From a bacterium (lineage in GTDB: Bacteria; Patescibacteriota; Microgenomatia; Curtissbacterales; GWA2-41-24): a stretch of 64,000 nucleotides of DNA. Numbering within the stretch: the first letter of the stretch is position 1; each line of letters begins with the position of its first letter. Position numbers: made by a program. The stretch covers positions 97,343 through 161,342 of the forward strand of contig JAKAJD010000002.1 of the NCBI GenBank assembly GCA_021813945.1, written 5' to 3'. This document shows, one piece after another, positions 24,001-30,000 of the stretch.

Positions 24001-27000
24001 AGACCGAAACTTTTTCAACGGCTGCCGACAACCAAACATCTGTTGAAATCAATGTCCTTCAAGGTGAACGCCCGATGGCAGCCGACAACAAGTCCCTTGG
24101 CCGCTTCATTCTAGACGGCATTCCGCCCGCACCCCGCGGTGTCCCGCAAGTCGAAGTCACCTTTGACCTCGATGCTTCCGGCATCCTAAACGTTAAAGCC
24201 AAAGACAAAGCAACCGGCAAGGAACAATCCATTAAAATCACCGGCTCAACAGGCTTAACCGACGAAGAGATTAAGCGCATGACCAAAGAGGCCGAAGAGC
24301 ATGCCAAAGAAGACGAGGAAAAGAAGGGTGAAATTGAAACCAGAAACCAGGCCGATGCCCTAATTTACCAAGCCGAAAAAGCCCTTAAAGACGGGGGCGA
24401 CAAAGTTCCTACGGATGTTAAGGGTGAGGTTGAAGAAAAGATTAAAGCCTTAAAAGAAATCCAATCAGCAGGATCTGTTGATGAAGTTAAATCCAAAACA
24501 GAAGAACTCTCATCTGTCCTTTCCAAAATCGGCGAGTCGATGTACAAAGGCCAGGAAGCACCGCAAAGTGAGCCAACACCAGGATCAGACGGCCAAACCC
24601 CGCCATCCGATGGTCAATCAGCCCAATCCGACGACAAAGTCGAAGAAGGGGAAGTGGTCAAAGAATAATGACTATAGACTCCGAACCAGGCACTGTCCGA
24701 TCTACAGCCTCAGAAGCAGAAGCTAAATTAACGATCGCGGAAAGGCTCCAAATTCATCGAAGTAGGCGTTTGATGTCAGGTCAATCTTGGTCTGAATATT
24801 GGGGTACAGATCCAACAGAATCTCTAGCTAGAGCAAACATAAGACATGTTGATGAATTGTCAGACGGAGAATTTATAGACTTGTATTTAAAGATAGCATC
24901 CAGTTTTAAATGACCAAACTTTCTACCGACATTTTTGTCCTCTGCGATTACGCATCTGTCTCCCAAGAGCAAAAGCTTTCAATAATTGGCATTTTTGACC
25001 AGTTTTTCGTAGCTAACCTTCCCACAACCTGGCCAAAAATGTACCTGGTTGCAGTTGTTTCCGGTGAAGCAGGTAAAGAATATCCCCTTGTCTTAAAACT
25101 TCAAGCTCCGACGAATGAAGAAAACAGTAGCTTTCCGGATAAGGAATTCAAAATCACTTTAGGCCAAAACGGCAAAGCCAATGTTATGACAGAACTTGTT
25201 AATTTTCCGCTAACGCAAGCCGGAATTTACAAGATCCAGATTTTAAATGAAAAAGAAAAAGTCGGGGAGTTAGAATTTAAGGTCAATAAAACTACGGCAA
25301 CTTACGAACCGAATAAAGTTAATTAGGTCTGCAATTTTCAATTTAAAATTTGAAATTTTTACTGAGTTTTTAATGTTTAAAATTTAATTTTTAAAAATTG
25401 ATTTAAAATTAATCGATGGCTACTACACGTGATTACTACGAAATTCTTGGCGTTTCCAAAAACGCCTCGGCGGATGAGCTGAAAAAGGCTTACCGGACCC
25501 TAGCGCGAAAACACCACCCGGATGTCGACAAATCCCAAGGCGCCGAGCAAAAATTCAAGGAAATTAACGAAGCTTACCAGGTCCTTTCCGACCCCCAAAA
25601 GAAATCAGCCTACGACCAGTTCGGCCATGCCGCTTTCCAGCAAGGCGGAATGGGAAGCGCCGCAAATCAAGGCCCGTTTGGCGGATTTGGAAGCGGCCAA
25701 GGCGGATTCCGCACATACACTTGGTCATCCGGCGGCGGCCAAGGCCAAGACTTTGGCGGTTTTGCCGACCCGTTTGATATTTTCGAAGCATTTTTCGGCG
25801 GCCAGTCACCGTTTGGCCAACAGGCGCGACTTCCCCGTTACGCCATAAAAATAACTTTCGAAGAAGCAATTAGTGGTGTCCAAAAAGAAATCTCAATAGA
25901 AGGCAAAAAACAAAAGGTTAAAATCCCAGCAGGCGTGGACGACGGTTCCGAAATCCGTTTTTCAAACTATATTTTAGTTTGTGAAGTTTCCCCGAGCCAA
26001 AAATTTAGAAGAAGGGGATACGATATTGTCACAGAAAAAGAAATTTCCTATTCCCAGGCAGCTTTAGGTACAGTGGCCGACATAGAAACCGTCGAAGGCC
26101 TTGTCAAAATCCGCATTCCCGCTGGCACCCAACCCGGCACACAAATACGCTTAAAAGGCAAAGGCGTAAAGCACATCAACGGCCACGGCCAAGGCGACCA
26201 TTACGTCATCATCCGCCTCCAAATTCCTACAAAATTATCACGAGAACAGAAACGTCTTCTTGAAGATCTTGAGAATATTTCTTAACCTTACCAAACATTA
26301 CGAGCATAGATTATTGAAGCAACTGGAACTGAAAGACTTTGATGAAAAGGAAACTAAAAACAACCGTTTATTTTGACGAGCACATTCATAAATCAATAGT
26401 CGATAGCTTTAAAGATCTAAATTACCGTTGCCTTTTCATATCAAAGACAAAAAAATACGCTGGGAGGGACGAAAAAGATTATATTGCCGAAATATACTCT
26501 GAAGGGGCAATTTTTGTTACATCTGATTTAGAATTTTTCGAGTACATAATTGGCAATAAGATATTTCATTCCGGGGTCGTTTACTTCCCTTCGAAATGGG
26601 ATGACGAAACTAACTCTTTTGCCGCTAGTGGTATGGCAGGATACCTCAAAGGAACAATTGACAGACAAGGTAAAAGATCGTTAATAAATTCAGCTTTTTA
26701 CGTCGCAGACGATGGTTATCACTTAGTTGAAAACGGAAAGGATGACCTCATTATGTCTACAGATGCAATAGAAATAATGATGGACTCTTACTAAACTAAA
26801 TCTCTTCCAAGCTTAATTTTTGCTATAATTCCCGTGTGAAATTTAAAAAGATTCTTGTAACAGGCTTTTCAAAAGCGGAACTTTCCGAAAAAAGCCAGAA
26901 AGAACTGTCTAAATTATCAGACAATATCGTTTTCTCTGCTTTAGACGATCCGAATTTACCAAAAGAACGAGCAGATGCCGATTGTCTTTTAGCCAAATTT

Positions 27001-30000
27001 AATGCCGTCACCAAAGGCGATATCCAAACTTCACCAAACCTTAAATACATCGGCGTGCTTTCAACCGGTTATGGAAAAGTTGATGTTAGCTTTGCAAAAA
27101 ATAAGGGGGTAGTCGTTACAAATGTTCCTGGTTACAGCACAGAATCCGTTGCCGAATTCGTTTTTGCCGCGATCCTGGAAAACCTCAGAGATCTGGAAAG
27201 GGCCAAAAATCAGGCCAGAAAAGGGGATTACTCCGAAGCAAGTTTTAAAGCGGGCGAAATTAAAGGCAAAAACTTTGGAATAATTGGTTTGGGCCGAATC
27301 GGAACACGGGTTGCAAAACTTGCCCAAGGATTTGATGCCAATGTTTCCTATTGGTCGAAAACTAGAAAGAAAAATTTAGAAAAGGCCGGCATCAAATATC
27401 AAAATTTAGAAGATTTAATCTCAGAAGCAGATTTTTTGTCGCTTCATCTTGCTTTAAACAGCCAAACCGAAAATTTCCTAAACCAAAATCTAATTAACAA
27501 AATCAAGTATGGCGCACTCATTATAAACACTGCTCCGATGGAACTTATCGACTTGTCGGCTTTAGAAAAAAGGCTCGATGCCAAAAATATCACATTTATT
27601 TTGGATCATTCCGACGAAATGAAACCTGAAGATCTAAAAAGCCTATCGCAATATAAAAATTGCATAGTTTATCCGCCAATTGCCTACATTTCCGAAGAAG
27701 CAAAAGACGCAAAACAGGAAATTTTTCTGCAAAACATCGAAAATTTCCTCAAAGGCAAACCAACAAACGTCGTAAATTAAGCTCTCTCTGCCGAGATCAT
27801 ATTTTTGACTTAGCATTCAAAAAGTATTAGAATCGGTTGGTTCAATTCAAACCCGCCTTGGGGAAGATTGATTTTTTACTTTTAAAAGAGACGAGCATGC
27901 CAATTGAAGCAGTGCACGATAGAGTACCCGAAGTTCAACAAACTGAACCCAAAGTTATTACTGTTATTAGATTTAAACTTCCATCAGCACTGGCACGCGA
28001 CGGTTTGGCCGAGTATTTCGAGAATCTAAGAATAAATACAATAATCAACGATGATCCCGAAGAACTTGGTGCAGTCCGTGTTTCACTACCGCTCCCGGTA
28101 GCCTCAATTGTCGAGACAATACCTCTTAAAGCACTTGGGGGAACAATTATATTACTAGAGTCCCAATCACCCGGAGAATAATATTCTCGCAAATCCCATT
28201 TGCTATAATTTTGTCATGGCAACTTTACCATTTTCTCCATTTAGAAAAGAAAACGGATTTATTTTTACATCCGGTCAGGTCTACTTAACGCCGGAAGGGA
28301 AACTTTTAGAAGGAACGATTGCGGATCAGACTCATCAGGTAATGGCAAATTTAAAAAATGTTTTAGAAAAGGCCGGAGTTACTTTTAAAGATGTCGTAAA
28401 AGCCACAGTTTATATAACAGATATGGCTTTGTATTCCGAAGTCAGCGAAATCTACGGGACTTATTTTGAAGAGCCATTCCCGGCACGCGAAATGGTTTGT
28501 GTTAAAGAGCTTCCTCTTGGAGCAAAGTTGGAAATCAGCCTCGTCGCAAAAGTCTAAACACCGATTTTGCTATACTTTTTCCAATGAAAATTGTAATCAC
28601 CGATAAGATTAACCTTGATCAGGAAGGAAGAAAAAAACTGGAACAAATCCCCGGCGTAGAAATTTACGACGATGTCCCAACCAAAGAGCAAATAATCGAT
28701 CGAGTTAAAGATGCTGATATCGCTACTGCTTGGTACATTGATTTCACCCGCGAAATTATAGAAGCAACAACCAATTTAAAGTACATTATTGTTCCCGCTG
28801 TTGGAACGGACTGGATCGATCACAAAACCGCAGGTGAAAAAGGCATAAAAATCTTGAACTGCCCCACCTTTAACTCTCAAGCCGTAGCCGAACATGCAAT
28901 AGCTCTAATGTTTGCTATAAAACGACAGATTGTTGCAGCAAACTTAGCAATCCTTAATGGTAGTTTTAACTCAAAAGATTTTGAAGGCACAGAAGTAAAA
29001 GGGAAATCTCTTGTTACATACGGATTTGGAAATGTTGGCAAAAAAGTAATCGAATTAGCAACAGGTCTTGGGATGCAAACTGGGTATATAAACACAAAAA
29101 CGTCGGAAGAAGATACAAACGATCTTTTTAAAAAAGCAGACGTCCTCGTAATGTGTTTAACTCTAAACGAGCATACAAACAAAATACTAGACGCCGGCAA
29201 AATTTCACTTTTGAAAAAAGATGCTGTGGTAATCAACGTTGCTAGGGGCGAAGTTATTGATCAAGACGCATTTTACAAAGCTCTGACAGAAGAAAAAATT
29301 GCCGGTGCCGGAATCGATACATTCCCAAATGACACAACAATTGCGACATCTAGTAAGGCCACATCGGAAATTTTAAAATTTGCAAAGCTTCCAAATGTTG
29401 TTGCAACACCTCACATGGGTTTCAAAACAAAAGAATCGATGCAAAGGTTAGGGAAAGAGTTAATAGAAGACATCGAAAGTTGTCTAGAAGGCAAACCAAT
29501 AAACGTCGTAAACTCATAAACTCCTCACATTTGACTTAAAAAATTCCAAAGGTTAACATTTGCAATAAATGAAGGGGCCAGAAAGATCATCAAGAACTCT
29601 TAGGACAAAAGCAGCTTTTGCTGCAGGAGCTGCGGCACTGAGTGAATTCGCAAGGCAAAGAGAAGATGTCCTTCCGTATTTAGAAACCGGAATTTTAATA
29701 AATGCTGGATTTAGGGCTAGGATTGGCTCATTTTTCTCCCGAGAAATAGAAGTTGTTAGCCGTATGCGAAAAAAGGAAATTGCAATGACAGCCCTAAAAG
29801 CCGGCGCAGTAACTGTCGCTATGGAATTATTGTCCTCGGAAAAATAAATTCCCAAATCAATATCCAGTTTTTGCTATACTTTTTCCATGGGCTCCATAGT
29901 CGAACTCAACGACACGCTTCAAATTACGTCGGAACAAGGCTTTCCAATAGAATTGGATTTTGAAAAACATCGAAAAGAACCTTTCAAAGTAGAAGATTTT

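Follow-up and report, generated by a model that had tools for sequence, protein, structure and literature searches.

The window considered here is a 64,000-nucleotide (nt) stretch of DNA (contig JAKAJD010000002.1 of assembly GCA_021813945.1, positions 97,343 to 161,342 of the forward strand) from a bacterium of the Curtissbacterales lineage of Patescibacteriota. It has a G+C content of about 41%, is identical to Logan contigs from SRR13240876 and SRR17201078, and represents a Microgenomates-type genome of the candidate phyla radiation (CPR), the named LepA homologues belonging to the Patescibacteria group, Ca. Curtissbacteria and Saccharimonadales. Between 26.8 and 30.3 kb the window carries six consecutive genes on the plus strand, separated by gaps of 26-56 nt, which include two D-2-hydroxyacid dehydrogenase paralogues and a RidA/L-PSP family gene. 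In five of these six genes the gap is essentially the gene's own promoter, with a -10 box placed 6-9 nt before the start codon. This arrangement, which recurs throughout the window and in related loci, would most probably give rise to leaderless or near-leaderless mRNAs.

Four extended -10 boxes of the cluster, originally described as lying 6-7 nt 5' of GTG or ATG codons, were confirmed base by base (Table 1), and none of them is accompanied by a usable -35 hexamer (at most two of six matches). The 26-nt gap between the RidA stop codon and ATG 28584 consists wholly of promoter. A different design is found before ATG 29569, where the promoter block at 29531-29571 (TTGACT-N17-TAACAT-N9-ATG) is about 90% identical to positions 836-874 of the related locus L009; no protein similarity was detected between the open reading frames (ORFs) that follow it (92 amino acids (aa) in the window and 88 aa in L009), both of which are Arg-rich. 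The gene starting at ATG 27897, which has a database gene call in L001, is the sole clearly leadered member of the cluster, and its 5' region showed neither an Rfam match nor a Shine-Dalgarno (SD) sequence. Regarding the start codons themselves, GTG 26836 is the earliest possible one after an in-frame stop at 26797, the 28584 protein has 120 homologues, mostly of 306-311 aa, and NCBIfam equivalog models align from residue 1 for AlaS and RuvX, encoded elsewhere in the window. The start codons of the tested genes are soundly supported by such family models.

Two of the four boxes lie within an identical 18-mer, TTTTGCTATACTTTTTCC, which occurs exactly twice in the window (28565-28582 and 29869-29886, both on the plus strand), each copy containing TGCTATACT. 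The original prediction had regarded this 18-mer as a promoter block duplicated before two different genes. The identity and the two genes proved correct, but a duplication appears the less likely reading. L009 has TTTTTGCTATACTTCCTTT, TTTTTGATATACTTTTTGC and TTTTTGCTATACTTTCCCC, each followed by ATG, before unrelated genes. The genus promoter consensus is TTTTTGCTATACTTTYYC, and two separate matches to this strong genus-level consensus explain the identical pair, for the most part, better than a duplication does. In the class consensus, TTTTTG[C/A]TATACTT followed by pyrimidines, only about 5-6 positions are free, which makes two independent instances of the 18-mer plausible; by a rough estimate (10-30%), an identical pair among several such promoters is not very improbable.

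Alternatively, a real duplication or rearrangement could have left the identical 18-mers behind, the promoter having been copied or recombined between genes. In L009, the 3' flank of the orthologous small ORF, together with TTTTTGCTATACTT, drives the dehydrogenase, whereas the window has this flank in front of the 123-aa ORF, with the dehydrogenase served by a separate copy of the 18-mer behind RidA. This exchange of flank and promoter with respect to L009 makes a rearrangement breakpoint at the promoter plausible. In addition, a bidirectional promoter block of 24-40 nt was reused several times in L003 and L010. An origin of this kind nevertheless appears unlikely, considering that the identity stops exactly at the ends of the 18-mer, with unrelated flanks on either side, and that the consensus itself fixes most of its positions.

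Position and promoter character of the -10 boxes

A -10 box was defined as a TAnnnT hexamer with at least four of six matches to TATAAT (at least five of six in a stricter set), and the boxes counted at spacers of 6-9 nt from the start codon were compared with a null taken from spacers 12-45 in the same upstream regions. Counts were made for the 62 starts of the window, for a close-relative set formed by the window and loci L003, L009 and L010 (orthologue identity 72-82%, with 82% for L009), and for a pooled set of 11 related loci with 294 genes. Scans of genome contigs and metagenomes with the 28584 protein yielded few relatives, and a search with RidA retrieved identical strains only; the relatives were reached via protein homologues and their contigs. 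The nearest named genome match for the dehydrogenase was a Candidatus Woykebacteria metagenome-assembled genome (MAG), at 73% aa identity. Locus L003 is non-syntenic with the window and L021 and L022 are syntenic, while L004, a Firmicute control locus, has 15 genes only and is too small to say much. Gene calls for most of the related loci were database-derived and independent of those of the window, which were our own first-ATG calls. Genes were taken as operon-first when 25 nt or more separated them from the preceding gene, or when they were divergently arranged.

The boxes are strongly concentrated at the position next to the start codon. In the window, 16 were observed against 4.6 expected (p=2.6e-5), or 10 against 2.0 under the stricter definition (p=4.6e-5). 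The excess rises to 46 against 9.2 (p=4.5e-18) when the three close relatives are added, with 28 stricter boxes against 2.9 (p=2.5e-18), and to 91 against 25.9 (p=2.3e-23) in the 11 loci, with 63 against 9.8 (p=7.6e-30). The distances from box to start codon thus peak at spacers of 6-9 nt both in the window and in the 11 loci, and this position-specific enrichment rejects the notion that the motif is equally frequent at other positions, which had been set out beforehand as one of two findings that would speak against leaderless mRNAs. Spacers of 6, 7, 8 and 9 nt accounted for 16, 12, 8 and 10 boxes, respectively, in the window and its close relatives. Because spacers 7 and 8 are enriched like 6 and 9, a stop-codon phase artefact does not explain the peak, as in-frame TAA or TAG codons would affect spacers 6 and 9 only. 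Longer motifs behaved likewise, with four matches to TGCTATAMT in the window against 0.59 expected (a count of four was reached in 2 of 100 shuffles) and three to TGNTATAMT-N6-DTG against 0.14 (0 of 100 shuffles reached three). When a box of the stricter set followed by N6-9-[AG]TG was searched anywhere in the window, 11 of the 38 matches were gene starts, the prior per ATG/GTG being 2.4%.

The boxes show properties of sigma-70 promoters. When 44 candidates of the window and its close relatives were aligned on the hexamer, the extended -10 TG was found at -15/-14 in 19 of them (43%), against about 1/16 (about 6%) by chance. T occurred at -15 in 24 candidates, G at -14 in 21 and T at -17 in 26, the segment from -17 to -15 being T-rich. 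Matches to the -35 consensus, scored for hexamers at 16-18 nt, averaged 3.28 in candidates without TG and 2.53 in those with TG (Mann-Whitney p=0.006), meaning that the extended -10 TG compensates here for a weak or absent -35. Several candidates are textbook TTGACT-N17-TAnnnT promoters, such as that at 29531-29559. The candidates are also preferentially operon-first (35/43, compared with 45/86 of the other genes; Fisher p=0.002), and in the window the motif was present at 13/35 operon-first and 2/25 internal genes. Their start codons in eight loci were 65 ATG, 2 GTG and 0 TTG, whereas TTG was found in 9/161 other genes (p=0.06). A generally purine-poor spacer, with the A of ATG as the first purine, was considered as a further trait and discarded, since only the TTTTGCTATAMT class shows it, and A makes up 31% of spacer bases overall.

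In agreement with the proposed lack of SD sequences at these genes, SD-like 4-5-mers were present in 1/44 candidates and in 23/89 other genes (p=5e-4). Elsewhere SD 5-mers (GGAGG, AGGAG, GAGGT, AAGGA) are positionally enriched 4-11 nt before start codons (window, 11 cases against 1.4 expected; eight loci, 55 against 5.4), and the L010 ribosomal-protein genes carry SD. Two initiation modes therefore coexist beside each other, as had been suggested. From the positional enrichment of SD sequences, the anti-SD of the 16S rRNA would almost certainly be intact, in agreement with the report that only a subgroup of Parcubacteria is devoid of it (PMC9297842). Scans for rRNA in the window and seven related loci were negative, and neither Rfam models nor a tRNA search gave a match in the window. 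A canonical SD precedes roughly 10-15% of the genes, and SD-like 4-5-mers are present at 9/62 window genes. Many operon-internal genes have neither SD nor -10 box (for example, those starting at 14036, 20636, 24910, 30261 and 45193), and a third, SD-independent start mode, by coupling/reinitiation or through unstructured A-rich leaders, must, to judge from these upstream regions, be common here.

In the sequences compared, orthologues retain the geometry of box and start codon despite altered sequence or neighbours. The dehydrogenase orthologue has a different neighbourhood in L003, L006, L009, L010 and L019. It is preceded by TAAGAT-N6 in L003, TGATAAAAT-N7 in L006, TGCTATACT-N6 in L009 and TGATATAAT-N8 in L019, with only a weak TAAGCT-N7 in L010 and no clear box in the short contig L005. 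The DnaJ-like gene has TAAAAT-N6 in the window, TATAAT-N6 in L021 and TAAATT-N9 in L022, that is, the geometry was kept while the sequence changed. The box of trxA, TGGTATAAT-N10, is common to the window, L021 and L022, with one spacer base differing in L022, and the lepA TATACT-N8 is retained by L022 but missing from L021, in which lepA directly adjoins murJ. The box in L021 that corresponds to that of ATG 19428 reads TAAAAT, the RidA orthologue in L003 has TGGTAGAAT-N7-ATG, and alaS in L019 has TATAAT-N7-ATG. The pattern was seen in 9/13 genes of L009, and the peak is still present in the more distant L019 (10/23 genes, including alaS and serS) and in L015, a Saccharimonadales MAG (9/26 genes).

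In L010, the start codons of divergent gene pairs are only 29 and 38 nt apart, and the 38-nt pair (14572/14611) is made of two facing TGTTAGAAT-N7-ATG units. Similarly compact is a bidirectional cassette, CAT-N7-ATTCTA-GCA-TTTTTGG-TG(T)-TAAGAT-N8-ATG, in which two facing extended -10 boxes lie 7-8 nt from their start codons. It was found at 2838, 5280, 11708 and 13182 of L003 and at 8325, 9974 and 14572-14611 of L010, with near identity over 24-40 nt; the 14572/14611 pair follows the same design within its 38 nt.

Probable leaderless transcripts and competing readings

The spacer peak, the exclusion of SD, the operon-first bias, the inverse relation between TG and -35 and the conserved orthologue geometry all support the leaderless mRNAs originally proposed. 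It is thus most probable that sigma-70-type promoters placed 6-9 nt before operon-first start codons would give leaderless or near-leaderless mRNAs, many of them being predicted extended -10 promoters (T-tract, TGn, TATAMT) without a usable -35. We infer the transcription start sites and the translation mode from promoter geometry. Bacterial RNA polymerase usually initiates about 7 nt past the -10 hexamer, so transcripts would begin at the A or G of ATG or GTG when the spacer is 6-7 nt, and 1-3 nt before the start codon when it is 8-10 nt. Translation would then proceed without SD pairing, presumably, by analogy with other bacteria, through direct binding of the ribosome to the 5'-terminal AUG or GUG. 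About 25% of the window genes, and about 37% of the operon-first genes, are built this way, and the predicted leaderless design belongs to the genome and the lineage as a whole rather than to one region.

Several observations weigh against this interpretation. Spacers of 8-10 nt imply short leaders and not strictly leaderless RNA. Some strong boxes lie farther from the ATG, at 14-15 nt (49318 and, for rpsL, 61205) or at 29-63 nt (the UvrD-like gene and 27828), and box enrichment was absent from the related locus L013, which is a conjugative-element region. Database gene calls might prefer starts beside a learned motif, a concern eased by the first-ATG calls made for the window and by homology-anchored N-termini. 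Finally, transcripts may reach the cluster genes from upstream. No terminator-like hairpins or sites were seen in any gap of 26.8-30.3 kb, and read-through is therefore likely. Because the downstream cluster genes lack SD, they would have to be translated from leaderless transcripts of their own.

The last point leads to the best surviving alternative to leaderless mRNAs, in which the promoters are real but expression occurs mainly via longer read-through transcripts, proximity to the start codon being a by-product of extreme intergenic compaction. The short gaps between tandem genes, of 26-49 nt and devoid of terminator-like hairpins, favour this possibility, as does the absence of SD from many operon-internal genes, which implies that SD-independent internal initiation must exist in the genome anyway. 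It is nevertheless improbable. Compaction alone predicts no sharp peak at 6-9 nt, the spacing is conserved under sequence turnover, as seen with the DnaJ-like gene, and where gaps are roomy, as at 25404 (89 nt) and 43055 (109 nt), the box is still kept 6-8 nt from the ATG.

Less probable still is that TAnnnT constitutes a non-SD translation signal of the type of GeneMarkS-2 group B, or an A/T-rich unstructured initiation region, with no promoter function. The rarity of SD in the genome and the A/T-rich sequence directly upstream of the starts would fit such a signal. However, a translation signal should also precede operon-internal genes, and the concentration of the motif at operon-first genes argues against it. 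In addition, the TG one base 5' of the hexamer, the invariant T1, A2 and T6, the inverse relation to -35 quality and the TTGACT-N17-TAnnnT cases are traits of sigma-70 promoters. The chance occurrence of -10-like strings in A/T-rich intergenic DNA might be suggested by the 41% G+C and by a scan of 25-32.5 kb for paired -35 and -10 elements, which gave no excess (17 against 15.2 expected) because it demands a -35 that these promoters lack. Chance can be practically dismissed, since the enrichment is specific in position when compared with neighbouring sites 5' of the very same starts, and 9/9 TGNTATAMT sites are on the plus strand, on which nearly all genes beyond 13 kb are encoded.

Known systems and significance

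The leaderless design is well known in other bacteria. In the GeneMarkS-2 classification, group C (Mycobacterium, Streptomyces, Corynebacterium and Deinococcus, from Actinobacteria and Deinococcus-Thermus) has a Pribnow box 6-8 nt before first genes, SD on other genes, and 25-50% of operons leaderless (PMC6028130). The system described here resembles group C in box distance, first-gene bias and the confinement of SD to other genes, and also in its share, with about 37% of operon-first genes compared with 25-50% of operons (PMC6028130). It differs from group C in its host, a Microgenomates-type member of Patescibacteria with 41% G+C rather than high-GC Actinobacteria or Deinococcus, in the prominence of the extended -10 TGn and upstream T-tract, and in the low overall use of SD.

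Extended -10 promoters (TGnTATAAT) recognized by sigma-70, and the '-16 region' TRTG of Gram-positive bacteria, are also established. The present boxes share with them the TG one base before the hexamer and the weak or absent -35 when TG is present, but are here fused to the start codon, and in the strongest class -10 and ATG are separated by a T/C-rich segment. Archaeal leaderless transcription, which forms GeneMarkS-2 group D, uses a TATA box about 26 nt upstream (PMC6028130). A fixed distance from promoter to start codon and the lack of a 5' untranslated region (UTR) are common to both; however, a bacterial -10 box lies here at 6-9 nt, and the archaeal transcription machinery differs. Group B, mostly from the Fibrobacteres-Chlorobi-Bacteroidetes (FCB) group, has a non-SD motif that is also found at operon-internal genes (PMC6028130). 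Scarce SD and an A/T-rich motif just before the starts are shared with this group, whereas the motif studied here is concentrated at operon-first genes and bears promoter hallmarks.

A literature search that did not extend to the supplementary GeneMarkS-2 genome lists retrieved no report of leaderless mRNAs in CPR/Patescibacteria. What is described here is a known mechanism extended to a large and poorly studied lineage, and not a new mechanism. The pattern was seen in Woykebacteria-like, other Microgenomates-like and Saccharimonadales contigs, and leaderless initiation from extended -10 promoters could conceivably be a trait shared by the whole phylum Patescibacteria and perhaps ancestral to it, a proposal that is tentative and open to doubt. 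If true, a gene would be a self-contained module of promoter and ORF that dispenses with both UTR and terminator. These units, among them bidirectional cassettes of 38-45 nt with two facing -10 boxes, could be freely copied and shuffled, which would help to explain the scrambled gene order among relatives, the 18-mer of the window and the 24-40 nt block of L003 and L010.

There may also be practical consequences. Start calling in CPR MAGs usually presumes an SD-type ribosome-binding site, and a leaderless model would improve start assignment, as in the case of ATG 1605 described below. Patescibacteria are only now turning genetically tractable, and expression constructs for them could make use of the promoter consensus TTTTTGCTATAMT, placed before 6-7 pyrimidine-rich nt and an ATG. 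Moreover, CPR bacteria have reduced ribosomes, and widespread leaderless initiation in this group would bear on the debate over ancestral leaderless translation.

Other boxes and start codons of the window

Beyond the cluster, the examples that had been listed before the FemAB-family gene (complement of 10587-10592), lepA (17607), the DnaJ-like gene (25404) and the ORF at 46546 were found as described, as was TAACAT-N9 at 29554. The trxA box was displaced by 1 nt, lying at 13087-13095 instead of 13088-13096, with a spacer of 10 nt instead of 9 nt. These and further features are collected in Table 1.

Table 1. Promoter boxes, SD sequences and associated genes in the window.
Feature	Position	Strand	Relation to start codon	Gene or remark
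TATAAT	10587-10592	-	6 nt before ATG 10580	FemAB-family gene, 9576-10580
TGGTATAAT	13087-13095	+	10 nt before ATG 13106	thioredoxin (trxA); implied leader about 3 nt
TATACT	17607-17612	+	8 nt before ATG 17621	lepA
TAACAT	19415-19420	+	7 nt before ATG 19428	138-aa ORF
TAAAAT	25404-25409	+	6 nt before ATG 25416	DnaJ-like gene
Extended -10 TGCTATAAT	26821-26829	+	spacer tcccgt (6 nt), then GTG 26836	
Gene	26836-27780	+		D-2-hydroxyacid dehydrogenase paralogue; without -35 hexamer, without SD
Classical promoter TTGACT-N17-TAGAAT	27805-27833	+	63 nt before ATG 27897	94-aa ORF
Extended -10 TGCTATAAT	28201-28209	+	spacer tttgtc (6 nt), then ATG 28216	
Gene	28216-28557	+		RidA/L-PSP family; Pfam alignment begins at residue 3
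Extended -10 TGCTATACT	28568-28576	+	spacer ttttcca (7 nt), then ATG 28584	
Gene	28584-29519	+		second D-2-hydroxyacid dehydrogenase; Pfam alignment begins at residue 3
Classical promoter TTGACT-N17-TAACAT	29531-29559	+	9 nt before ATG 29569	92-aa ORF, 29569-29847
Extended -10 TGCTATACT	29872-29880	+	spacer ttttcc (6 nt), then ATG 29887	
Gene	29887-30258	+		123-aa protein, without family match
TAAAAT	43055-43060	+	8 nt before ATG 43069	FtsK-like gene
SD AAGGAGG	46122-46128		before ATG 46138	
TATAAT	46534-46539	+	6 nt before ATG 46546	15-codon ORF, 46546-46593
Strong SD AAGGAGGTG	46651-46659	+	5 nt before ATG 46665	
TGATATAAT	46846-46854	+	7 nt before ATG 46862	alaS
TACTAT	52311-52316	+	7 nt before ATG 52324	ruvX
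SD AGGAGG	52894-52899		before TTG 52907	

The stop codon of the 15-codon ORF overlaps a very stable hairpin (GGGAGGTTT...AAACCTCCC), which is followed by a T-run and has an alternative pairing, CCTCCC/GGGAGG. The hairpin within 46534-46665 has a predicted energy of -42.4 kcal/mol (z=-4.4), and the SD-led ORF 46665 lies just 3' of it. The region looks like a leader-peptide or terminator attenuator, the leader peptide of which would come from a leaderless RNA.

Some boxes bear on the choice of start codon. The longest ORF at 1485-2597 contains, in frame, TGATACAAT-N8-ATG 1605 (1588-1607), and its real start is probably 1605, which would make it 40 codons shorter. For the UvrD-like gene, on the minus strand, the longest-ORF start is TTG 13030; this position is a TAA stop in L021, which indicates ATG 13012 as the real start. 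This ATG has a TATAAT 29 nt upstream (region 13012-13046) and a conserved leader without SD. Perfect copies of TGATATAAT were found at 49318-49326, 15 nt before ATG 49342, and at 61205-61213, 14 nt before ATG 61228 (rpsL). The leaders of these two genes would be of about 8 nt without SD, forming a class between leaderless and SD-led mRNAs.

A CIRCE-like inverted repeat, TTAGCACTC-N9-TATTGCTAA, lies at 21484-21510 upstream of hrcA-grpE-dnaK and is conserved in L021. It encloses the extended -10 TGGTAATCT (21494-21502), and hrcA has the SD GAGGT. On these sequence features, hrcA-grpE-dnaK is a classical HrcA-regulated, leadered operon within the same genome.

As to the products of the cluster, the two dehydrogenase paralogues of the window are about 28% identical. 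A RidA gene and a D-2-hydroxyacid dehydrogenase gene lie near each other in the window (26836-29519), in L014 (10001-12052), where one gene separates them, and in L015 (9618-10933), where they are adjacent; this recurrent proximity suggests a functional link.

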